Below the pieces are notes generated by a model, which made no database searches, was not told the origin of the DNA, and saw only the letters and a program-made list of their open reading frames with translations. From the NCBI GenBank assembly GCA_965649765.1, contig OZ287754.1, positions 27,404,001 to 27,468,000 of the forward strand: a stretch of DNA of 64,000 nucleotides, written 5' to 3'. This DNA is from Bispira polyomma (Eukaryota). Made by a program: the position numbers and the translations under genes. This document shows, one piece after another, positions 4,497-55,010 of the stretch (position 1 is its first letter; the number at the start of each line of letters is the position of its first letter).

Positions 4497-7400
4497 TTGT
4501 ATTGTAATTGTAATTAGACTTTTATAGCGCTTAATCTCCCCTTAACGAAGGGGACTCTAAGACCCAACAGCACAAAAGACAGTTATACAATTTCAATATC
4601 CAGAAACAGAAAAGGGTAGAGCACCACAGAACTGGGTATGCTTTGGTGTACAAGTGGGTTTTAAGCTGCTTCCTAAAATAGGCTAGTGAGGGGGACGCAC
4701 AAATCACATCAGAAAGAGCATTCCAAACAATAGGAGCATCAAAGCTGTGACCAAACTGTTTAACTGACTTTTGAGTGGACGGGTGGAACTTTGGTACTGC
4801 AAGAAAATTACTACCACTCTGACTGCCTCTTGTATTTTAACTACTGTAAGAGGAAAGATTTGGGGCAAAATACTTTGGAAAACCAGTGTGAAGAAACTTA
4901 TAAACAGGTGTAGCTGTTTTAAACACTGAACGCTGTTCAACAGGGAGCCAATGCAATATCTTAAGAACAGGAGTTATACTGGTGTATCGACTGGTATTTG
5001 ACACAATTCTAGCTGCACTATTTTGAATGCATTGCACTCTACGTAAATTAAACTTTGAGATACTGCTAAAAAGCGAATTGCAGTAATTCAGTCTACTACT
5101 GACAAAAGCATTGGCCACAAGTATAGAAGCATCATATGTGAGAAACTGCCTCACACGTCTAAAGTCCCGGAGTTGCACAAAACAACTTTTCCAGACATTC
5201 TGAAAGTGTTTAGAAAAGGAAAAGTCAAAGTTGAACCATACACCCAGGTTCTTGACAGAATCAGATGGGCTGAAAGGGGTACCTAGAATGTCAACTGGAA
5301 AACATGCTTTCAACTTCTTCCTCTGTCGTTTTGAGTAAAAGATTATAAACTCAGTCTTGTCGGGATTAAGTTTGAGCTTACCAGTTGACATCCACTCTTT
5401 CACATCGTCAAGGCACCTGTTCAACTTTTCAAAGGCAGTAGATGTATTGTTGTGGGATAAGTGCACATAAATTTGGGTATCATCTGCATAAAAATGAAAC
5501 TTAATACCTTTATATTTGCCAATCACCAATCTGAGTGGGGCAATGTACAATAAAAACAACAGAGGGCCCAAAACAGGACTTTGGGAACACCAAACAAGAG
5601 TTTACAAAGATCAGACAAAGTAGAATCAATTTTTATTGACTGATAACAATCAGTTAAGTAGGAAGTGAACCATTTAGGAACAGAGCCCCTAACTCCAAAC
5701 CAAGTCTGAAGACAACTGAGAAGAGTGGAATGATCTATGGTGTCAAAGGCAGCAGAGAGGTCGAGCAACACCAGAGCAGTAAATTTGCCTCTTGACAAGG
5801 ATAGGTGAACTTCATTTTTTATGGACAGAGGAGATGTCTCAGTCGAATGAACTGTTTTATATGAAGACTGGTATAGGTTGTCTAAGTCGTGGACAAGGAT
5901 ATGATCTAACAGTTGCCTAGCAACCACACATTTAACCAGTTTTGATATGAAACTAAGACCAGATACAGGGCGATAGTTCTTTAGGTCATCAACCGGAAGA
6001 GAAGCCTTTCTTATCAGAGAAGTAACCACAGCTGTTTTAAAACCATCAGGTACGTGTCCCTCAATAAGTGAGCAGTTTACAAGCTTTGTAATGGATGGGA
6101 GTAGTATATCACCACATTCTTTAATGAGAGATGTTGGCCATTGATCCAACATTCAGTATTTTGTAGGCAAGTTACTATTTATTTTATTAACAGCATCTTC
6201 AGAGACTCTGGCAAAGGCAATAATTTCAGGAGGATCAGAAAGAGGATGAACATCATTTTTAGTTCCAGAAACAACAAAAGTATATCTAATTTTCTTAATT
6301 TTGTCTGAAAAAAAGGAAGCAAACTTGTCAGCTAATGACTTATCAGATTCATGGGATGGAAGTGCCACATTGGAAACCATATTAAGGGTCTTGCGCAGCT
6401 CGTGCTATAGCTTTCTGGAGTTGTGACTGTTGTCTGAGATAAGTTTGCTGTAATACTCCGACTTATCCTCGTTAACAAGTACATTGCACCGAGCAATCTG
6501 GTCACAAAGTCGACTTCTATTCAGTGGATTCTTGGCCCTTCACCAAGTTCTTTAATATTGGTGCCTGAAAGACTTTGCCTGTTGGTATGATTCAGAAAGC
6601 TAATGCACAGAATCTTTCTTTGACATTCTAGATACAAGTGGTGCCTGCTTATCAAGTACATCACCCAAGTCATGTACGTATTGTTCCTAAAGTTTGGCTA
6701 CATATTTGGCTGGTGACTTAACGAAGGGAGTATTCTTGAGATTGGTGCAGAGGTCAGACATATTTATACCGTGGTACCTCCTATTATGCACTATATTTGG
6801 AATATGAGCCACCTGCCGAGGAGAGGCAATTGAGCATTTGACTAATGCATGATCAGATATAAAATGGCAGACTTTGACATCCACAATAGTATCCGGATCA
6901 CTAGGAGATAAAATGAGGTCCAGAATGTGACCATGCAGATGGGTAGGTTGTGTAACTGACTGTTTAGATCACACAAATCAAGAAAGGTCATAAATTTATG
7001 ATCATCACCAACTTGTGCATCAACATGGATGTTAAAGTCACCACAGATATGATACAAACTGTTAAAAGATAACAGGAAACAAACAAGAGACATGAATTAA
7101 ATTAATTACAATTACATGATCCTGGGGGGCGATAGACACAGGCAAGCAACAGTGAGCGGCCATGAAGCCAAATTGACACCACCATGTTTTCAAAGGACTG
7201 ATAGACAGGAGACTCTATTTTATGTGGTCTGAAGGATGATCTGATGAAGAAACCGACACTGCCACCAATACATGAGGGACGAAGCGTTTGAAAAATCAGG
7301 AGGAGTAACAGACCGTAGAAAGCTATCCGTATCAGATAGACGGACATGGGTCTCAGCAACACAGAAGAAGTGGAGGTCATGCGAAGTCACAATGTCAGCA

Positions 7401-12744: not shown

Positions 12745-13871
12745 CCATAATTTATTAAGAGTAACTTCATTAAATTGTAGAGGTTGGTGGGTTTGTAGCA
12801 AAAGAAATACTTTTTGTTTTCGCCCCAAGTGACCTATTAGAAGAACCGTTTGGACACAACAAAAATGTCTTTTGATTAAGAGAATAACAAACATAGGTGA
12901 TATTTAACATAGAGATAAATAGAGTAGGTGTCATCTTTTGAAAACAAAAACAGCTAAGCCTGTTTTATGAACCTTATATTATAAATATATACAACATCAG
13001 CTTTAGGTAAATATATAAACGATACAAACAAACCTGTCATACCTATGTTTTATTATGTAAAATGTTATCATGAAATACAGCCCAGGCCTGAATTAAACCC
13101 TGGTCCTGTGTGTTCTTTAGTGAGTGTATTACCTACAGGGCTAACAGTGCTAATGATCTAAAACTCAAGTTCCTACTCAAGTCAATGTCACTACAATCTA
13201 CTCAACTCTACACTTGGGAGTTCCATTAAAATTGCCAACGTGCCCCCTGGGACAACTGTGTTTATATTGTGGAGATTGTTTTTGTAATTGCTTTTGGGTT
13301 TTTGCTCAGACATGAAGAACAAACTGATGTTTTGTAGTGAAGATTAAAAACCCACCAAATTCAATCAGGCCTGCTGGGGCAATGCCCCTCAGTCACTAAA
13401 ATACTGTACATTACAGTATTACTTATAAACAAGTTGTTTCCCAAGGCAGCAGTCAATCAAAGCAACTAACTTAACTCAATCACAATAAGACTTTTTTTGC
13501 ATTTTGGCACCCTTTCTTTTATGTGGCCATTAACATAATAAAGTTGAATAAGTAAAAACTAAATTTTTTGGCCACTCACCCTCCTTGTCATGAGGTTGTA
13601 TGAATAATTATATACATATATGTGTATTTTATAATTGTATGCTAAAATGTATGGTATTTAAAGGTTTTATTACTTAAAATTATTCTGTATAGATGTATAT
13701 AAAAGCAAAGAAACTGTAAATAAACTGAAAAATCCCAAACTGCATCCGACTTTGTTATTCTTTAATAATAATAATATCAAGAAAGATTTAATGTGCCCAT
13801 TCCGTCCGCTGTTCACAGACATCTGCCAATTACACAACTTTAGAAAGCCATAGTTTTACTTGCTTAGCTAT
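12745..13871. repeat. ~1.13-kb direct repeat, left copy flanking the YR retrotransposon
   Basis: Colinear, high-identity match to 18816-19940. Confidence 0.95.
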
Positions 13872-14280
13872 TCGGGGGCAGTGTTTAGGCATTGCCCTTG
13901 TCAGTCCTCCACGACCTTAAATCCATGAGGGTACCAGTCTGTTCCTGACACAGGTAAAAAGTTTAAGTCAATAAACAAAAAACTCCTTGTTGTTATGTGA
14001 GAATGAAGGTAACTGAATCTGATTGGATGAGGCTCAAAGGACAAGTGACTTATTAGTGAAATAAGTTTAGTTTGAATTTGGCCACAGACAAATGTGGCAC
14101 GAACATTTCTGATTTCAAATTTTCTGTGATTGTTTTATATTTTATTTTACATGATTTTACAAACAGTGATTTACATTTATATGGAACATTTGCAGGACTA
14201 TTTTAGTATTTTAGTGTCTTATGAACATTCTGGAAGTTCGACTATGTCCTCACTACTCTACTCTGACAACCTCATGCTTG

Positions 14281-14304
14281 ATTGGCCCTCGGGCTGGATA
14301 TAAA
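14281..14304 (+). promoter_or_regulatory. Putative internal Pol II promoter of the YR element
   Basis: ATTGG (reverse CCAAT) at 14281-14285 and TATAAA at 14299-14304, ~160 bp before the gag ATG. Confidence 0.4.
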
Positions 14305-14462
14305 GGGACGAAGATCATTGCTAATTCAATTTAAACATTACTTGTTACAGCCGAGAAATAATCAAGTTTTGGAGTTGTCAGAACGGAGATCTGTGGGTTG
14401 TATTATTCTTGTTTCAGGACTTTATGAAAAAATTATAAAATAAGACAGTAAAGGACTAGACA

Positions 14463-15219
14463 ATGCCGCAATCAAAGGCTTTATGTAAAAAATGTGGCAA
14501 TAGACACATGCCCCCCACTGGGAAGAAGTGCACTCATGAAAGACATATTGATACAGATACTGAAGTGGTGACAGGAGAAGCTTGTGTAGTGGAGGACACT
14601 TTTGTTAAAAAACACGGGCAACACACTCAGGGCGGTAAGCTGTCAGCGACGGACAAGTGCGATGATGACCAGATCAAACAGAAACTGATTCTGCAACAAC
14701 TCCAGAGGGTTAAATAGGTTATCATATGATCAACTATCGCTAACCCAGTGGGTTCAAGGTTTTTGTAAAAACATTATGGAAGAGTCAGACAGTGACAAGA
14801 AAGACAGAATGATAAATTACATGTCGGATCTCATGGAGGATGCCACTGATTTCACATGGCAAGGAGCCAAAGCAGCACATGGTGTCTTGCTGTGTGAAAT
14901 GGAACGGGGCACCCTCACACGGGATGATAACACCAGAATAGATAGAATTAGGCGAGCTCATACTCAAAAACATACAAGCAATTCATTTGGAAACAGAAAA
15001 AAATCGGAGAGAAAGCAAGAGCAAAATAATCAGAAACCCTGGTTTTGCAAATTTTTCCAAACTGGATCATGTCAGTACACTAAAGACCATGAAATTGGGG
15101 GGAAGTTGCATCGACATATCTGTGCTCACTGTCTGGCTACAGGTAGGGTATTATCACATCTGGAAAAGGAATGCTTGTTCGCTAAGAAAAATAGGGGCCA
15201 GCAGGCAAAAAACGAATAA
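14463..15219 (+). pseudogene. gag-like ORF1 of the YR retrotransposon, broken near 14717
   Basis: N-terminal CKKCGNRH..PTGKKC; C-terminal DLMEDA..W..AKAAH..LLCEMERG and Cys/His finger CKFFQTGSC...H..HICAHC. Confidence 0.8.
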
Positions 15220-17194
15220 GTAGCTGCTCTCATAGTCTTAAACTAGAGGGCAGCGAGGGCAGTAAAAGTAACTCAATACAGACAGGTAGTAAGGACACAG
15301 GTGAGGTTTTTAGTGAAAGAAGAAAATCAGTCATTGTTGGTGCTGGATGTATTCGTCCAGAGACTAATGATAAAACATGTACAATGGCAGATAAGGCTGT
15401 CAGTTTTAACCAGACTAAAGTGTTGAATAGTCACAAAGTTATTAATGTACAGCATGTAAAATGTGTTCACAATACAATGAAGTGTCAAGATAGGTATTTT
15501 TGCAGCAATAGTGTAAAGAAACAAGATGTAGACAGTCTACTAATACGTTCTTTAAAAGATGTTATGTGCAACTTCAGGGCAGTCAGTTCTGACGTGACAG
15601 CTAGGTCATATGCCAGTGTAGTTAAGGCCAAACCTAAGGTAGGCAGGGCACGACAAACGACAGGCACTGCAAAGGTAGCACTACATGACAGACATCTCAA
15701 ACTTGTGTCACATAAAAAGAGTGACAAAAACAATAAGTGTAAAGACACAGTACAAAGACATGACAAGGTCAAGGTGAATGAGAGGGAAACCCCTACTCCT
15801 AGACAAACAAAACAAGTCCATAGTGACACAAGTGAAACACGTAAAACCAGACTGATATTCGACATTAATAGCATGGAGGATAAGTTCATTAACTCCATAC
15901 TATTTAACAATGAAAATAAAGTGAAATCAAAACACACAGAGCTGAATTGTCAAACGTTTGATGAGTTTACAAAACAAACAGAGTTTCAATTTGTTTCATT
16001 CCCTCGAGTGACCCCACACTACCTGACAGCACGGACAATGACAATAGTAGTATTGATTGTCCTATCAAGCGACATTATCAGGTTAAGAAGGGGGGGGGCG
16101 ACATTCATTTGAAAATAGACCCCATGGATTACGACTTACTTGGGTTGAATTGGCAAGGTACTTATATCGACACATGTCTCCCCTTTGGGAGTCGTCATGG
16201 TAGTCAATTTTTCCAACCCATCAATGACGCAGTGCAGTACATCATGCGTCAACGCGGAGTTAGCGTAATAAATTATATAGACGATTTTTTGGGTTACGGG
16301 ACGCTCACAGTGGCAAAACGCTCATTCGAAAGTCTCTATGACGTCATGGAGAAGTTAGGTCTCACCATAAGCCAAAAGAAACTGCTTGTACCAAGTACAC
16401 AGGCTGTATGTCTGGGCATTTTAATTGACACTATTAAAGGCACAGTAGCAATACCGGAAGAAAAACTAACAGAAATAAAATCCACAGTTAATGACTGGCA
16501 AACAAAAAATGTGTGTACTAAGAGACAATTACAATCCTTGCTAGGGTAGTTACTTTACGTCCACAAGTGTGTGAAGCCAGCGCGGTGTTTCCTTAATCGC
16601 ATGCTGGAACTACTGAGGAGTATTGTAAACCCCAATAGAATTAAGTTGATTGAAGAATTCAAACGTGACCTGAGATGGTTTCAAAAATTTCTACCCAGAT
16701 ATAATGGCGTCTCAATGTATGGGCATAAGAGGACTGACCACACTCTAGAACTGGACGCTTGTCTGCAAGGGCTAGGGGGTCGATGGAAAAATTTGGTGTA
16801 TCACCTTCCCATACCTTTACATTTTCAAAACCTAAAAATTGTCCATCTAGAGATGATTATTATCCTAGTGGCATTGAAATTATATCAAGCCTATTGGCAA
16901 GGGACCAAAGTTTTGATAAAATATGACAATCAAGCGGTAGTTCATGAGCTAAATTCAGGTAGGGCTAGAGATTCCTACCTGGCAGCTTGTGCCAGGAACG
17001 TGTGGTATCTGGCTGCCACTGCAGACATTGACTTACAGTATATACATGTACCAGGTAAGGACAATAGGACTGCAGATTTGCTTTCGAGATGGAAAAACTC
17101 AGTCAGTGACTGGACAGAATTGAACACATTAGTGCACAATCCAGTGTGGCTAGAGACCTCTATAGAATTAACACAAATAGACAACACATTATAA
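15213..17194 (+). pseudogene. pol (basic N-terminal extension + RT + RNase H) of the YR retrotransposon
   Basis: RT motifs LPFG and NYIDDFLG; RNase H motifs LDAC, HLEM, DNQAVV, HVPGKDNRTADLLSR; one in-frame TAG at 16547-16549; frameshift near 15993; deletion of the RT N-terminal part near 16105. Confidence 0.92.
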
Positions 17195-17210
17195 TATATG
17201 CAGGGATACA

Positions 17211-18200
17211 TTGACGAATATTATAAGTCAAATTAAGGTAGATACTATGCTTTGTGTTGTAGGAACAGAGGCACTGAAAAACTTACAGATGGGAGCTCAC
17301 AACAGGCTTCATATGGCATTCAGACCAAAAACAAGGAAATGTCACCAGAGTCTGTTCAGAACTTTCATTGCATTCTGTTTGTGCACTGGGTTGGTATTGC
17401 AAGTCCTGGAAGTAAAAAATGTTATGTCATTCTTAGAATACTTGGTAATACATAAAGTGTCTGTCCATATGGTAGCAAACTATGTATCAGCCATTAAGGC
17501 CATGAGTATTGTGTATGATTTGCCATTTCAAATTTTTGATCACCCAAAAGTTAAATACTTTGTGAAATCCTTAAAGATCAATAGAACAGACGCAATAGTT
17601 AAACAAAATGTATTGGATCTGGACACGTTAGAGAAATTGATCAGGCAATGTGCACATATAAGCAACTCACAGGTCTTTAAAGCTATTTTCCTTACAGGTT
17701 TTTTTGGATTCTTTAGACTTTCTAATGTGGCTCCACACACAGTGAAAGATTTTGATTTCTCATGTCATTTTATGGGCGGAGATGTGTTCTTTGAAAAAAA
17801 TGCTGTTAAACTCTTATTAAAATGGTCAAAAACTTTGCAGAATAGAGATAAGGTTCAAATTGTCACTCTACCGAGATTGAGATCCTCAATATTGTGTCCT
17901 TATGGGGCATTGAAAGACCTATTCAAACTAGATGCACCGGCCAAAAATGACCCTTTATTCCAATGTATGACAGTGACTGGCAGGCAGGTGGTCACAGATT
18001 CCAGGGTAAGAAAAGTTCTGGCTTCACTTAATCAAAAATTAGGTTATCATGCAAATTTCTATACATTTCACGTGTTCCGACGTTCAGGTGCCACCTTGGC
18101 CTACCAAGCTCAGGTTCCAATACAACAAATGAAAGATCATGGCACCTGGACGTCGGACTGCGTCTGGACTTATATCCAAACCAGTACAAATACTACATAG
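17211..18200 (+). CDS. Tyrosine recombinase (phage-integrase family) of the YR retrotransposon
   Basis: Catalytic set FFRLSN (R), WSKT (K), HVFRRSGAT (HxxR), HGTWTS (W), WTYI (Y); open for 329 aa; the TAG at 18198 may be premature. Confidence 0.92.
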   Translation: MTNIISQIKVDTMLCVVGTEALKNLQMGAHNRLHMAFRPKTRKCHQSLFRTFIAFCLCTGLVLQVLEVKNVMSFLEYLVIHKVSVHMVANYVSAIKAMSIVYDLPFQIFDHPKVKYFVKSLKINRTDAIVKQNVLDLDTLEKLIRQCAHISNSQVFKAIFLTGFFGFFRLSNVAPHTVKDFDFSCHFMGGDVFFEKNAVKLLLKWSKTLQNRDKVQIVTLPRLRSSILCPYGALKDLFKLDAPAKNDPLFQCMTVTGRQVVTDSRVRKVLASLNQKLGYHANFYTFHVFRRSGATLAYQAQVPIQQMKDHGTWTSDCVWTYIQTSTNTT

Positions 18201-18294
18201 GTGGCCACCACCTTCCAGAGACTGCTAAATGCCAGATAATGTTTCAAACCCTACTTGTTGGGCTTGAGGCTTTCTTCAAAGATTCTATGTTAAA

Positions 18295-18589
18295 AATTCT
18301 AAAGCATTGTAAAAGTTGAGGTCAAATGATGTAAATATTGGTAGCTTAAACTCAGAATCCACACTTGTGTATAGGTAACCTTAAACTGGCACAGTTTAAG
18401 TCAACTAAGGTGACCACTCAAGTTAGGGTCACCTTAAACTTCTTTCTGTAGGTGTTTCGGAATTAGTTTAAGAGCACCTTAAATGAACAGTCAAAAAATG
18501 TCTTTAAGTCAAAACTTAAAGTGGAAATTACGTTTAACCTTAAACTGGAAAAGTTTCACCTGACCTCAACTTAAGTATTAAAGAGTGTA
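18295..18589. mobile_element. Probable MITE inside the YR element 3' region
   Basis: Inverted aagttgaggtca / tgacctcaactt and internal repeats of accttaaact. Confidence 0.5.
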
Positions 18590-18815
18590 ATTTTTATTAT
18601 TGTATACTTTATAACGAATTGTACATAGTCAGTAGTTTAGAATTTATAGTTTACACCATTTTACACATATATTTTAAATAAAATATATACACCCTCATAG
18701 ACTCGTTGTCCTTGACTTGGGAGTGGTAGGGACTGTCGGGGGCATAAATAAACAAACTCCTTGTTGTTATGTGAGAATGAAGGTAACTGAATCTGATTGG
18801 ATGAGGCTCAAAGGA

Positions 18816-19940
18816 CCATAATTTATTAAGAGTAACTTCATTAAATTATAGATGTTGGTGGGTTTGTAGCAAAAGAAACACATTTTGTTTTCACCCCAAG
18901 TGACCTATTAGAAGAACCTTTTGGACACAACAAAATGTCTTTTGATTAAGAGAAAAACAAACATAGGTGATATTTAACACAGAGATAAATAGAGTAGGTG
19001 TCATCTTTTGAAAACAAAAACAGCTAAGCCTGTTTTATGAACCTTGTATTATAGATATATATAACATCAGCTTTAGGTAAATTTATAAACGATACAAACA
19101 AACCTGTCATACCTATGTTTTATAATGTAAAATGTTATCATGAAATACAGCCCAGGCCTGAATTAAACCCTAGTCATGTGTGTTCTTTAGTGAGTGTATT
19201 ACCTACAGGGCTAACAGTGCTAATGATCTAAAACTCAAGTTCCTACTCAAGTTAATGTCACTACAATCTACTCAACTCTATACTTGGGAGTTCCATTAAA
19301 ATTGCCAACGTGCCCCCTGGGACAACTGTGTTTATATTGTGGAGATTGTTTTTGTAATTGCTTTTGGGTTTTTGCTTAGACATGAAGAACAAACTGATAT
19401 TTTGTAGAAAAGATTAAAAACCCACCAAATTCAATCAGGCCTGCTGGGGCAATGCCTCTCAGTCACTAAAATATTGTACATTACAGTATTACTTATAAAC
19501 AAGTTGTTTCCCAAGGCAGCAGTCAATCAAAGCAACTAACTTAACTCAATCACAACAAGACTTTTTTTGCATTTTGGCGCCCTTTCTTTTATGTGGCCAT
19601 TAACATAATAAAGTTGAATAAGTAAAAACTAAATTTTTTGGCCACCCGCCCTCCTTGTCATGAGGTTGTATGAATAATTATATACATATACGTGTATTTT
19701 AAATTGTATGCTAAAATGTATGGTATTTAAAGGTGTTATTATTTTAAATTATTCTGTATAGATGTATATAAAAGCAAAGAAACTGTAAATAAACTGAAAA
19801 ATCCCAAACTGCATCCGACTTTATTATTCCTTAATAATAATAATATCAAGAAAGATTTAATGTGCCCATTCCGTCTGCTGTTCACAGACATCTGCCAATT
19901 ACACAACTTTTGAAAGCCATAGTTTTACTTATTTAGCTAT
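18816..19940. repeat. ~1.13-kb direct repeat, right copy
   Basis: Matches 12745-13871. Confidence 0.95.
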
Positions 19941-25233: not shown

Positions 25234-27295
25234 TCAGACATTTAGGACGTAATGACTTTTGTTGTGAATATTTATAATAAATATGGATAATGAAATGTTA
25301 TTCAAATCTGACAATAACTTATTACTAAATAACAAAACTGAGGCAAGTTGCAGAATATGAGGAATAACTAGCAATTTTAGAATGGTTATTTTGCCCTTTA
25401 GTGTTAGGCATCTGGAAATCCAGAGATTTAGGATGTTTTCAATCTTTTTTATTTTCTCATTTATGTTCAGTGAAATAATTTCATCTGTGTTCAAAGAGAA
25501 CCAGATTCCCAATGTTTTGAAAGGCTTATTTATCCATTTTATTCCTAAAGTCTTATCTTCTTTTAATGTTTCATTATTCTGGATAATGGTTGCCTCAGTT
25601 TTGTTTTTATTTGATTTAAGACCAGCATATCTGTAGGACTCTTCAAAGAGGTCTAAAAAAAATTTAAAAGATTCTACATTTTGTAAATATAGAGTCATAA
25701 CATCAGCTAACTGACAAAGTTTAATACAAGTTTCATTTACTTGTAATTCCTTGATCATTTTTGAATTACAAATAACTATCGCTATAGCTTCGACTACTAA
25801 CAAGAATAAAAGGGCACTAATAGGACATCCTTGTCTAATACCTCTTAAAAGCTTAAAATATGCAGATTGGTGTCCATTATTTGACACACAACTTTCACTA
25901 TCATAATATAGGATAGAAATCCATTTCTGAAAATTATCTTCAAAACCATAGCAGGACAAGGTATTGTGAAGGAATTCCCAGCTTACTGTATCAAAGGCCT
26001 TTTCAAAATCTGCCAAAAGAACAACACATGGGCTGTGATAAAGTTTGCAGTAGTCAATTATATCTGTCATTAATCTAGTATTTTCACCACAAAATCTGTT
26101 TTCCATGTACCCTCTTTGATCAGTATTGATTATTGTTTTCAATGCTACTTTTAATCTGTTACTAAGTATCTTTGCTAAAATTTAATAGTCTGTATTCAAA
26201 ATTGACAGTGGACGCCAAGAATTCAGTTCAGTAAGGTTTTTGTTTTTCTTTGGAATCAAAGTTATTACGCCTTGTTTTTGACTAGGAAATAAGTTGGCCC
26301 GTTTCAAAGGTCTTTATAAAGCTACAATGGATAGTGTCACATAAGTCATCCCATAGATATTTATAAAATTCACTTGGAATTTTATCAGGCCCGAGTGTTT
26401 TATTGCCCGCTAAGTCCTTGACAGCTTTGCTAATTTCTTCCATAGATATGTCTGCATTGCAAAATTGTTTATTTTCCTCGGTGATTTTTGGTAGACTCGC
26501 CTTGGTGAGATAAGATGCTATATTTAGTGTATCAGCCTTGTCTTTGCTTAGATTATTATAAAGATTATGGTAATAAGTTTGTTGTGCATTCAATATTTCT
26601 TGGGGATCAAAAATTTGTTTCCGCCTACATTTAAAGCACGTATATGTTTTATGTTATACTTGGCCTTTTCAAGATTTAGAAAAAATCTAGTTGGTTTTTA
26701 ATATTCTTCTAACAATTGACATCTTGACCTAATAATGCACCGTAAAGCTTTTTCATTATAGATATTTTCTACTTTATTTTTGACTAAGCTTATTTTGTCA
26801 TGAATACTTTTCGAAGGGTTGTAGCTAAACAGCTCTTCTAAGGCTAAGAGCCTTGCTAAGAGAAAATCGAGACTGCCTTTGCTTTCTTTGTTTTTTTTAT
26901 TGAATTTGAAATAGATTCTGTATGTTTTCTACACTTTATAAAATCCCATGTATATAAACTGTTAGTCAGATTTGGTATATCAGATTTTGCACTGTGTATT
27001 GTATCTTTCATAAGTTTAAAAAAATCACTACTTTGTAGGAAACTAATATTCAGTTTCCATAGACCTCTGCCACGCTGTTGTTCACCTTGTAATTTTAAAG
27101 AAATATGAAGTAAACTGTGATCAGATTTGATGCTAGAGATTATTTCAGCAGATTTGGTAACATATTCGAGGTGACAGGAGATAAAAAAATAGTCAATTCT
27201 TGATTGGGCAAATCCACTCTTTGTTTTTTCTCTCCGAGTAAATATTTTTGTGTCCGGAGAGTGTAATCTTCATATATCTACAATATCTAACAATT
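25234..27295 (-). mobile_element. Tx1/L1-clade LINE fragment (EN C-terminus + RT), pseudogenised
   Basis: SRIDYF, SDHS, RGLWKLN, GPDKIPSEFYK, DFEKAFD, RGIRQGCPISALLF and decayed QLAD(D). Confidence 0.92.
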
Positions 27296-31100: not shown

Positions 31101-32094
31101 ACGTAACATCTAGAAAAGTCCCACCACCAACCCGTCTTTACTGCCATTTAAGTATATTAACTTGATCTTATATGTCGGAGCTCAGATTCCGTGTGGGGAG
31201 TTCTGTCTCCTAAACCCCCTTTTAGCTCACGTTTAAGTGGGGGTCCCACATTCTGGATTTGGTCCCTGACCTTCCTGACTTTGAGGCCTGGGACACGTAC
31301 GGGGAGGTCGGGGACAAAAAACGGGGTGGTCGGGAAGGCCGGGAAGAATATCAAAAAGGTTAGATATTTTGAAAAGTGTCCCAACTTTTGGTCCTGGACC
31401 TCAAAGTCGGGACCATCAATACGTTCAATCCTATTGCCAATACGTTCTGTCGGATAGGTCGGGGTGCACTGCCAGGACAGAACGTATTGGCTATCAGATC
31501 TGCTGGGAGAGACAAAAGATCGACCGGGGGAAGGATAGGACAGAACTTATCAGCAGTAGGATCTTACGTATTCAGTACCGACCAATAGGATCAAACTTAT
31601 GCAGTACGGGGTGTTTGGGTATAAAAACATCCCGTCAGTACTAGACTCGTTGTATTTGGAGATTGCTGACTGGTACTTGAAGTTGTGTTTTTTTGTGCAG
31701 GGGTTTTTATTGTTTTTAATTATATGTACTGAGACAGCGACGATTTTACAGCTTAGGTTTTTTTTTATTATTACACAACAGTAAAGATGCCTAGATTGAT
31801 TAGAGTTAAGAGGAAAGATTGTGGAGAAGGAGAGAGAGAAGGAGTTTGAAGTGAGAGTTTCGTCTGATGAGATAGAGAGGACGAGGAGAGATGACAGAGG
31901 GAGTCCGACAGTGAGTGAGAGAGCAGAGAGTGAAAGAGAGGATGCTTTACAAGGAGTGAAGTATTCCTCAGAGGGATTGCCTGGATCTTCACAGTACAGG
32001 GGACGTGTGAACAAGCCCCACCTAGACAAGGCCCACCTGATTTCACAGAGCGAGAGAAATGGCTGATGATGCACTTCTCGTTTCTGGGATCACA

Positions 32095-32380
32095 CATCAT
32101 CAGACATGTGGGAGTGGTTGGGCAGGCTAGATTTTCTGTCTTATATTCATTAATGATGGCCTTGCATACTTCTAGTATAAACTTGGTGATAGATGATTTT
32201 CCCACCCTGAACTGGTAGGACAGGGACCTGTAGCTCTCCCCAGTGGCCAGGTGCCTTAAAGTTACAGCCAGTTTCAGTCCAACATCCAAGGGCTTTCTGT
32301 ACCAAGTTGTTTCTTTTTTCACATGGGGTGTTATCCTTGATTTCTTCAAATATATCAGGCGGTAGCCTGGGCCTTGTCTT
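32095..32380 (-). pseudogene. Harbinger (HARBI1-like) transposase N-terminal/HTH fragment
   Basis: RKPLDVGLKLAVTLRHLATGESYRSLSYQFRVGKSSITKFILEVCKAI. Confidence 0.9.
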
Positions 32381-32712
32381 GCTCATGTTGTAATATAAGC
32401 ATAAGGATACATATTTCAATCTAAAATAAAAACTAAAAATGTCCCTAGTCTCCGCAAAAAATCTTTATCACCAAGGGGCACGTGGTGGTGTTGGGTTCAA
32501 ATCTTCCTGAGCCTAAGCCTGGGCCTTGTCTTTGTTATGTTGTAATATAAGCATAAGGATACATATTTCAATCTCAAAAAAAACAACTAAAAATGTTCCT
32601 AGTCTCCTCAAAAAATGTCTTTCACACGTTGTAATATAAGCATAATGATACATATTTCAATCTCAAAAAAAAACTAAAAATGTCCCTAGTCTCCTCAAAA
32701 AATCTTCATCAC
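32365..32712. repeat. Three tandem copies of an ~85-105-bp segment inside the Harbinger element
   Basis: gttgtaatataagcataa(g/t)gatacatatttcaatct...ctaaaaatgt.cctagtctcc occurs three times. Confidence 0.85.
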
Positions 32713-52914: not shown

Positions 52915-55010
52915 CATATGATATATATATATATAATATCATAGATAAATATAACATCATATTATAGATATATTTAACATCATATCATATATATATATAT
53001 ATATCATAGATATATATAACATCATATTATCGATATATATATAACATCATATCATAGACATATATAAAACCATATCGTAGATATATATATAACAGATATA
53101 TATATATCATCATATCATAGATATATATAACACCATTTCATAGATATATTTAACGTCATATTATAGATAATAATAATATATCAGACTTTTTAAGCGCTTA
53201 TTTTTGTTGTAACAAATTCTAAGGCGCAAAAAACCATAGCCAGAGCCAAAAATCATTGGTGATAGACAGAAGGAAGTCGTCATCAATGCGTCCACTGAGA
53301 ACAGGAAAGAGACTATGGATGGAATGCATCATTGAACAGATAGCTCTTTAAACTGTGCCAGAAGGAATACAGGGACGGAGCTGTACTAATGTGTTGAGGC
53401 AAACTATTCCATAGGGTAGAGGCATCATTTGCAAAACTTTTATCAAAGTGAACCTTTGACCTATGTACTTTAGACTTATATTTTGGAACAAGAAGGAATC
53501 TATTTTTGGGAGCATCTCTCCTGGTATTGACATTACACTTGTAGTAAATCGAGTGTGGTTCAAATTATTTAGGCAAACCCGAATCGCGAAACTTAAAAAC
53601 TATTGTAGCAGTTTTAAACACACACCAATACCTAACAGGGAGCCAGTGGAGTGACTTCAGAATCGGTGAAGCACGTGAAAGCCGAGCAGAACAACTGACC
53701 GGACGTGCCAATGAATTCAGAATGCATTGCACTTTGTTTAGGTCCTTTTTGGTCAAGCTACGACACAGTGAATTGCAGTAGTCTAGTCTGCTACCAACCA
53801 GAGCATTTGCTGCAGTTATTGCAACCGATTTTGGAAGGTACCTCCTGATTCTCCTAAGGTCTCTAAGACCCATGAAGCATGACTTACACACTGATTGGAT
53901 ATGACTGGAAAATGAAAAATCACTGTCAAACAAAACTCCAAGGTTCCTCACTTTATCAGTTGAGGATAACAGTATCCCAAGAATGTTTACTGGAAAAGAA
54001 TTTGACAGTTCAGCACGTTGAGTGCCCGAGCCAAACAATATGAATTCAGTTTTAGCAGATTTCAGCTTGAACTTATTTAGTGCCATACAATTTTAAACAT
54101 CTACTAAACATTTCTGAAGGACTTCCAGGGCGCTGATTGATGTGTTTGGAGTAAGGTGCACGTAGATCTGTTTATCATCTGCATACAAGTAATACTTCAG
54201 AGAAGAATAGGAGGAAATAATTTTGCTAAGGGGTGTAGTATATAATGAAAATAGGAGTGGTCCAAGCACAGAAGCTTGTGGCACACTGAATTTCAGCACT
54301 TGTGAGTCAGACTGAATATCGCCAATTTTAATAGACTTGTACCTGTGTGACAAGTAGGAAACAAACCATTGCAAGACAGATTCTTTCAGACCAAACCAGG
54401 ATTTTAGTCTTTCAATGGGGACATTGTGATCAATAGTGTCGAAAGCAGCTGATAAGTCTAACAGTACTAATGCGGTGGGAACGCTCTTTGATAAAGACAT
54501 ATGAATATCGTTTTTAATATAAAGCAGAGCTCTTTCAGTTGAATGGTATTTTTTGCATGCCGATAGATAGGTGTTTTCTAGGCTGATTTTTTAAGATGAC
54601 TGTTGAGCTGTTGGGCTACAACCCGTTCTATCAATTTTGAGATATAGCATAGTCCAGATACCAGTCGATAATTTTGTAAGTCATTTTTGGTAAGGAAACT
54701 TTCTTTGTAAGAGAAATGACACAGCCCTTTTCAACTTTGTTGGAAAGACCCCCTTAGCTAAGGAATTGTTAACTAGTTGGGTTATTGATGGTAGAAGAAT
54801 TTCCACACATTTCCTTACAATTAATATATATAACATCATATCATAGATATATATAACATCATATCATAGATATATAAAACATCATAATATAGATATATAT
54901 AAAAAACATCATACTATAGATATATATAACATCATATTATAGATTCATATAACATCATATTATAGATACATATAACATCATATTATAGATATATATAACA
55001 TCATCTTTAC
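52915..55010. repeat. AT-rich ~21-25-bp minisatellite (atatataacatcatat(t/c)atag) in two blocks (52915-53168, 54822-55010) split by an L2
   Basis: Many tandem units on both sides of the LINE. Confidence 0.9.
53169..54820 (-). mobile_element. 5'-truncated L2 LINE
   Basis: LDLSAAFDT, VPQASVLGP, YADDKQ, SRLDYCNSL, LHWLPV; 3' end aagcgcttaaaaagtct plus (tta) tail. Confidence 0.93.

Follow-up and report, generated by a model that had tools for sequence, protein, structure and literature searches.

The element at the locus

The window, that is, the whole stretch of 64,000 nucleotides of Bispira polyomma DNA that was analysed, contains a retrotransposon copy in which gag, RT/RNase H and a tyrosine recombinase (YR) follow each other on one strand, an order that is also found in its relatives. 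The features of this copy, all on the + strand, are the following.

13872..18816, +: decayed Ngaro-like YR retrotransposon copy (gag, RT/RNase H, YR; 3' repeats truncated), from the alignment with copies L031/L032 and Pfam matches to RVT_1, RVT_3 and Phage_integrase
13872..14042, +: portion of the 5' split direct repeat A1 that can be verified in the window
14406..14417, +: T-rich tract ending in CAG, 5' of the gag AUG; acceptor-like, probably in the 5' UTR
14463..14717, +: 5' part of gag, from the AUG at 14463 to the stop at 14715-14717 where the reading ends
14714..15219, +: 3' part of gag (ORF), with C-terminal Cys/His zinc-finger-like motifs, ending in AKNE and the stop
15195..16112, +: -1 frame, N-terminal region of pol, 305 open codons, first ATG at 15384
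15207..15213, +: slippery heptamer A_AAA_AAC in gag phase
15214..15222, +: 9-nt spacer, including the gag stop at 15217-15219
15223..15254, +: predicted stimulatory stem-loop with arms 15223-15231 and 15246-15254, from folding and conservation
15965..17194, +: RT remnant and RNase H (ORF list, Pfam)
17181..18200, +: tyrosine recombinase ORF (ORF list, Pfam)
17243..17262, +: predicted 3' splice acceptor at the YR start, phase 1, composed of a branch-point-like motif, a T-rich tract and the AG at 17261-17262
18736..18816, +: what remains of repeat A2, following the end of B1; B2 absent

The closest copies, L031 and L032, align with the window at 93-95% identity, starting at 13866-13872. Part of A1 (13977-14042) recurs at 18751-18816 with 98% identity, and the first 9 nt of A1 recur at 18736-18744. 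The coding regions are damaged at several points. A deletion of 368 nt at 14713/14714 has removed the predicted splice donor from gag and is the reason why the gag AUG at 14463 is out of frame with the heptamer. In pol, the FGFIP motif is broken by a frameshift near 15990, and the RT region has suffered a 500-nt deletion at 16104/16105 and carries a TAG at 16547-16549. The window copy is dead; the signal in it is a fossil and would function only in intact relatives; therefore, the signal has to be judged on the family and not on this single copy. Some domain matches are weak: the 3' part of gag matches Pfam zf-CCCH with E = 0.076, and the YR of the relative L081 matches Phage_integrase with E = 3.8e-5, under Pfam's cut-off.

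Gene order, repeats and domain content assign the family, by sequence criteria, to Ngaro-like elements of the DIRS order. In L081 the split direct repeats A (245 nt) and B (458 nt) are both 100% identical and arranged as A1-ORFs-B1-A2-(275 nt)-B2; such repeats are also present in L036, L043, L082 and L086. Pol ends about 30 residues past the RNase H motif with no methyltransferase domain there, and three pol ORFs and one YR ORF gave no Pfam methyltransferase match at E <= 0.1. With split direct repeats and no methyltransferase, the family differs from the DIRS1-like and PAT-like types, of which the former is recognised by inverted terminal repeats with ICR and both by a methyltransferase.

The description of Ngaro in the sections covered of PMC8547959 and PMC4157794 fits the element. 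Like the zebrafish, Xenopus and Cafeteria Ngaro elements, it shows the order gag, RT/RH, YR and the arrangement A1-[ORFs]-B1 A2 B2, and lacks a methyltransferase; unlike them, it has about 275-310 nt between A2 and B2 in intact copies, and an SGNH hydrolase ORF was not seen in the family. The echinoderm form of Pat1, as described in the covered part of PMC4157794, resembles the element in its split direct repeats and in having a Gag zinc finger, but PAT elements carry a methyltransferase, which is absent from pol here. The same part of that paper reports one Pat1 lineage that lost its methyltransferase, an example of how structure alone can mislead classification.

The slippery heptamer and its conservation

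The initial annotation proposed that this family produces a Gag-Pol fusion by programmed -1 ribosomal frameshifting at the gag/pol junction. The junction reads as it described: gag ends in GCA AAA AAC GAA TAA, and the heptamer AAAAAAC ends on a gag codon boundary and lies in X_XXY_YYZ phase. The window contains 27 copies of AAAAAAC on the + strand and 476 words of XXXYYYZ type. Since the heptamer is not rare in this A-rich window, the case against chance rests on its conservation in other copies.

The genome searched comprises 1.035 Gb in 75 contigs. From 150 scored gag matches only a part was taken, picked for diversity, and the family comparison is based on 121 distinct places, which are thus not a random sample. 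These copies form 41 clusters (subfamilies) at 85% identity, with a median pairwise identity of 60%. L006, without a C-terminal gag match, was dropped, and L161-L180 were analysed apart from the 121. In the whole genome, a motif pattern with the 9-nt spacer gave 163 matches versus 9 for the reversed control, and spacers of 5-8 nt only gave 27 versus 4; all these are pattern matches, not confirmed elements.

The conservation that the initial annotation asked for is found across the 41 subfamilies: the site reads AAAAAAC in 98 of the 121 copies, AAAAAAT in 7 and another word in 16. The AAAAAAT variant, which makes TGA the first codon of the -1 frame, looks like CpG decay. The gag phase, taken from the frame of the tblastn match, is kept in 86 of the 98 copies with an intact heptamer.

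Codon usage at the site was analysed in 98 in-phase copies, leaving out the 23 of 121 that are out of phase. The codon bearing the X position ends in A in 96 of them while its amino acid varies (GCA 32, CCA 23, ACA 18, TCA 18; 91 copies out of 98). Counted per subfamily, the third base of this codon is A in 30/31, and the commonest base reaches 31-58% in 16 control four-fold columns. The Lys codon is AAA in 30 subfamilies and AAG in none. For Asn, AAC is used in 28 and AAT in 2, compared to an AAC:AAT ratio of 48:131 elsewhere. In a tree of the gag sequence that precedes the heptamer, the three silent heptamer positions changed 0/0/0 times on internal branches and 2/3/7 times on terminal ones; internal-branch changes in the controls were 4-16 (14 four-fold columns) and 2-11 (30 two-fold columns). 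The silent positions of the heptamer are constrained beyond coding needs. The gag stop is located one codon past the heptamer in 83 copies and six to seven codons past it, inside the stem-loop, in 29. The stop shifts its place and the signal does not, which links the signal to the heptamer rather than to the stop.

The downstream structure

The 9-nt spacer and the two arms, paired with one G-U, are present in the window just as initially described. Folding of 15214-15275, one of the checks that had been suggested, gives -21 kcal/mol (z = -4.23), and none of 200 shuffled sequences was as stable. Only the 50 nt that follow the heptamer show an excess of folding: there, z < -2 in 23/41 representatives versus 0-7/41 in ten other windows.

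For the comparison of stems, 112 copies could be anchored (9 of the 121 could not), with spacer lengths of 6 and 9 nt only being tried; the spacer is 9 nt long in 92 and 6 nt long in 20. Six core pairs of the stem are kept in 35-39 of 39 subfamilies, and its 3' arm stands in -1 codon register in 104 of the 112 anchored copies. The initial annotation had also suggested looking for covariation. Here the result is mixed, since the core pairs are conserved but covariation is modest and two-sided changes are few. Most variation is one-sided, from G-C to G-U; pairs with two-sided change do not exceed shuffles (68/500), and the RNAalifold covariation term is -0.57, with covariation in one of six pairs. 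One stem pair is U-G, C-G or U-A in 38/38 rows. Protein constraint could explain part of the stem, since the arms encode S-C...E-G-S in the -1 frame.

Two finer details read from the window did not extend to the family. The second gagggcag, thought to offer an alternative pairing, does not occur in L031 and L032, the two closest copies, and the inner tagt/acta stem is present only in the subfamily of the window. Both are local accidents.

Several clades show complementarity between the 3' part of the loop and a segment located 14-21 nt beyond the stem; the sequences differ by clade: AACTG/CAGTT in L021, GACTG/CAGTC in L115, TTACACC/GGTGTAA in L146 and GATCA/TGATC in L122. In this comparison, in which 14 of the 121 copies could not be anchored, the loop pairs better with its own segment than with swapped ones in 31/38 subfamilies (10.9 versus 8.7) and three clades use complementary pairs that differ from each other, on windows picked post hoc and among related subfamilies. 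When the pairing is unrestricted, the difference is weaker (4.6 versus 4.1 bp). A pseudoknot in the subfamily of the window is unsupported, as 33% of swapped pairs score as high. Modelled in this way, the stimulator in several subfamilies is likely an H-type pseudoknot instead of a simple hairpin.

Register and start of pol

In the window the -1 frame opens directly after a TAG at 15192-15194, as initially reported. Among the 121 copies, this frame stays open for at least 50 codons in 84 and the +1 frame in 3. The 300 nt downstream of the site contain 296 stops in the -1 frame, 884 in frame 0 and 1627 in the +1 frame, a pattern that is reversed upstream. A pol outside the -1 frame in intact copies had been named as evidence against the proposal. 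In the youngest family, whose split repeats are 100% identical, 9 of 11 copies are open in this frame through RT and RNase H, and 8 of these 9 run for 830 codons.

Of 40 copies, 34 have their nearest conserved pol motif in the -1 frame, and eight different spacings occur. The corresponding figures for motifs located farther away are 30/56 copies (LLxDxN) and 43/80 (FGFIP), as expected of decayed copies, though they dilute the signal. In the young subfamily of L161/L162 (15 copies), the first pol motif is in -1 in 8 copies, in +1 in 3 and in 0 in 4. The two longest pol ORFs there (L083 and L084, 814 codons) are in +1, each through a single-base difference of its own in a homopolymer run shortly after the site, and this register is tentatively read as decay or assembly error.

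Pol has no conserved start AUG. The first AUG of the -1 frame appears 7-135 codons in among the 121 copies; it is just 16 codons in for the youngest family. In L161/L162 it lies 299 codons in, behind two conserved pol motifs, and in L036/L078/L080/L100 the first pol motif is at codon 74 and the first Met at codon 96. These positions bear on the possibility that pol is translated separately, either through reinitiation or internal initiation at an AUG of its own or with a shorter transcript as template, with the K-N tail and the stem doing other work such as a protein function or RNA packaging. Many subfamilies do offer an AUG after 14-60 codons of the -1 frame, and one stem can have several jobs. 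However, a start codon whose position is not conserved, and which may follow conserved pol motifs, fits this explanation badly, and so do the fixed silent sites of the heptamer and a heptamer-to-stem register that is kept upstream of any AUG. Separate initiation is therefore considered very improbable, even if it survives slightly better than the other alternatives to frameshifting.

Gag homologues in other assemblies

The 120 gag homologues listed from other assemblies show at most 64% identity to the query. A recognisable zinc-finger end is present in 103 of these 120, and 92 of the 103 have x-K-N within 24 residues of it, x being S/P/A/T in 88. After x-K-N there is mostly one residue, or 7-8 residues such as EQAAAHH, which matches the 5' stem arm as read in the gag frame. 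Among more distant gag representatives, the K-N tail is found in 39/65, and control windows, which are not matched to the Lys-rich tail, contain K-N in 113/1489. At the level of protein sequence, these tails suggest that the signal may be widespread in the clade of gag homologues.

Relatives of the element were not found among 42 pattern matches in metagenome contigs, nor among 7 in viral contigs. Nine motif matches in metagenome contigs were discarded as chance, none of them having gag, pol or YR similarity.

Predicted splicing and expression of the YR

The region in front of the YR was surveyed in 41 long copies, 32 of which have a YR anchor. In 30 of the 32, the FRPKT codons are preceded at exactly 56 nt by an AG, and in front of this AG there are a T-rich tract and a branch-point-like motif; the distance of this motif varies (17, 19 or 20 nt) and hence its reading frame too. 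A donor-like AG|GTA in phase 1 occurs within the variable stretch in the middle of gag in 29/32, while GGT is used for the neighbouring Gly codons in only 6 and 7 of the 32. A T-rich YAG in the 5' UTR, similar to that of the window, was seen by eye in 31 of the 32 listed copies. The phases of donor and acceptor match, and the predicted product joins some 165 Gag residues in frame to the YR.

A frameshift between pol and YR was rejected for this family, since the two frames vary, overlap is the minority case and a conserved splice acceptor is present instead. An overlap of pol and YR exists in only 9 of the 27 copies where it could be measured, and the relative frame is -1 in 14, +1 in 7 and 0 in 6, the pol stop not being located in 5 of the 32. 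The YR could possibly be made by reinitiation instead of splicing: an in-frame AUG is present in the open YR frame in 28/32 copies, usually at 24-29 codons upstream of FRPKT; in L081 it comes directly after the pol stop.

The contigs of two runs (kind unrecorded) that were aligned to L081 contain no splice joint at the predicted sites, and one of them crosses the L081 junction gap-free; this result is uninformative on expression. Spliced retro-copies were sought twice, and none of the 40 candidates scored each time has a match that begins exactly at the YR acceptor.

Splicing could also supply pol, if a donor in gag were joined to an acceptor near the gag/pol junction. The element appears to use splicing elsewhere, and acceptor-like sites exist within -40..+200 nt of the site in 17/41 representatives. 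These sites, however, are scattered and absent in 24/41, whereas the acceptor before the YR is fixed, and a fixed A6C in gag phase would be left unexplained. The probability of this route to pol is only a few per cent.

A model of frameshifting

The initially proposed Gag-Pol fusion is supported at the level of the family, not for the dead window copy; the sequence features that could have spoken against it, namely a heptamer or stem missing from the family or a pol outside the -1 frame in intact copies, were not found. The motif, its phase and conservation, the constraint on silent sites, the -1 register of pol and the want of a conserved AUG are observed directly. With a probability of about 0.9, the conserved A_AAA_AAC and the predicted stem would drive -1 frameshifting in intact copies, giving a Gag-Pol protein with RT/RNase H.

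In such a model, a ribosome with AAA and AAC in its P and A sites (tRNA-Lys and tRNA-Asn) would pause at the stem 6-9 nt downstream, slip one base back and continue with a CGA codon into pol. Most ribosomes would terminate one to seven codons further on and yield Gag, and a minority would read pol. In several subfamilies, the loop of the stem may pair with the segment 14-21 nt downstream, forming the H-type pseudoknot.

The A6 run might instead make RNA polymerase II slip and add an A, giving an in-frame gag-pol mRNA, and genomic copies do differ by single bases in the A-run (in L090, L091 and L100, gag continues into pol in one frame), but such transcriptional slippage is hardly credible here, since a slipping polymerase needs neither codon phase nor a 3' RNA stem, while the phase of the A-run relative to gag codons is fixed, the RNA stem is conserved at ribosome-tunnel distance, the run has just six A's and the fused copies are sporadic.

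Ribosomal frameshifting and the predicted splice sites can be put together in a broader scheme: Gag would be made by default, Gag-Pol by the -1 frameshift at the stem or pseudoknot, and the YR as a spliced fusion to the N-terminal half of Gag, all from one transcription unit and in a retrovirus-like manner. As a whole, and as far as sequences allow, this scheme seems slightly favoured.

Relation to known systems

The gag-pro frameshift signals of MMTV and HTLV use A_AAA_AAC. The signal described here resembles these retroviral ones in the heptamer in X_XXY_YYZ phase, the spacer of 6-9 nt, the 3' stem-loop or pseudoknot and the enzyme frame in -1. Unlike retroviruses, the element lacks a protease, a DDE integrase and env and carries a YR and split direct repeats, and its signal is a predicted one.

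In the part of PMC5009743 covered, A_AAA_AAC ranks among the shiftiest eukaryotic heptamers, and a 2003 survey cited there is reported to have found pol in the -1 frame in 28 of 51 animal LTR retrotransposons, many of them with heptamers; that part mentions neither DIRS nor Ngaro. As in animal LTR retrotransposons, the Gag:Pol ratio would be set by a tandem-slip heptamer; unlike them, the element belongs to the DIRS order and encodes a YR.

For Ngaro elements, Poulter and Butler (2015), as quoted in the covered part of PMC13003380, proposed programmed frameshifts at the RT/YR overlap, that is, at pol/YR, whereas the signal of this family is at gag/pol. The idea of frameshifting in Ngaro elements is thus not wholly new in print. 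The initial annotation knew of no characterised signal of this kind in the DIRS order. This holds for gag/pol in the sections of the literature covered, but not for the general idea, already guessed for pol/YR. A gag/pol slippery signal was not found described for DIRS-order elements in the covered parts of the literature, which include PMC8547959, PMC3783388, PMC6681497, PMC3266345, PMC13003380 and PMC9210276, as well as PMC7192593, PMC6238403, PMC4157794, bioRxiv 10.1101/2022.06.16.496473 and bioRxiv 10.1101/2021.01.25.428050. Earlier Ngaro papers may well mention a gag/pol overlap, and the novelty is provisional. Provisionally, then, the mechanism is canonical and the element order is one in which no gag/pol signal was found described.

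Judging from these parts of the literature, the expression of overlapping ORFs in the DIRS order has been little studied, and papers describe the overlaps and at most guess at frameshifting. The family now offers a well-delimited cassette, about 90 nt long and supported by evolutionary constraint, that is ready for a reporter. Pol annotations begun at the first AUG would, by implication, miss up to 300 residues. The splice signals, if true, would call for another account of YR production in Ngaro elements than the one guessed in print, and the gag/pol signal would extend retrovirus-type -1 recoding to a lineage that encodes a YR.

Gag-pol junction

In copies of the Ngaro-like family whose A run at the end of gag is altered (L090, L091 and L100; proteins P0018 and P0105), gag continues directly into the pol frame and displays the expected trans-frame sequence. 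Within the downstream stem-loop, a C-run varies from 7 to 10 bases among copies L083-L086 and L161-L171; in several of these copies its length throws pol off register.

Splice-like signals

Sequence comparison across copies revealed a conserved putative splice donor in the middle of gag and a putative acceptor at the start of the tyrosine recombinase (YR) gene, with matching phases. From this conserved in-phase pair, a Gag-YR fusion produced by splicing is predicted. The window copy has lost the donor by deletion. A second acceptor-like site, a T-rich tract followed by YAG just upstream of the gag AUG, is conserved in 31 of the 32 copies compared (counted by eye) and suggests a candidate intron in the 5' UTR of the element.

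Relatives, e.g., L081 near 2273: predicted mid-gag splice donor
Window 17243-17262: predicted YR-start acceptor
Window 14406-14417: second acceptor-like site

Repeats and flanks

The split direct repeats B1, A2 and B2 are usually drawn as adjacent, whereas in the intact copies L081, L036, L043, L082 and L086 about 275-310 nt set A2 apart from B2.

L081:7112-7386: sequence between A2 and B2

The window copy lacks its 3' end (part of A2 and all of B2) and has on both sides a direct repeat of 1127 bp (96.5% identity) composed of host repeat DNA.

Window 12745-13871 and 18816-19940: flanking direct repeat

This arrangement probably reflects a duplication or deletion after insertion rather than a target-site duplication.

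Elsewhere in the window, ORF fragments resemble, as judged by eye, LINE reverse transcriptase or endonuclease pieces and a Harbinger-type transposase fragment.

4837-6152 (-): ORF fragment
25234-26181 (-): ORF fragment
31550-32382 (-): ORF fragment
43753-45347 (+): ORF fragment
53565-54092 (-): ORF fragment

Probable recent activity

Copies L081, L082 and L172-L180 belong to a very young family of at least 16 copies sharing 97-100% identity, and their terminal repeats are identical; this family has therefore likely been active recently.
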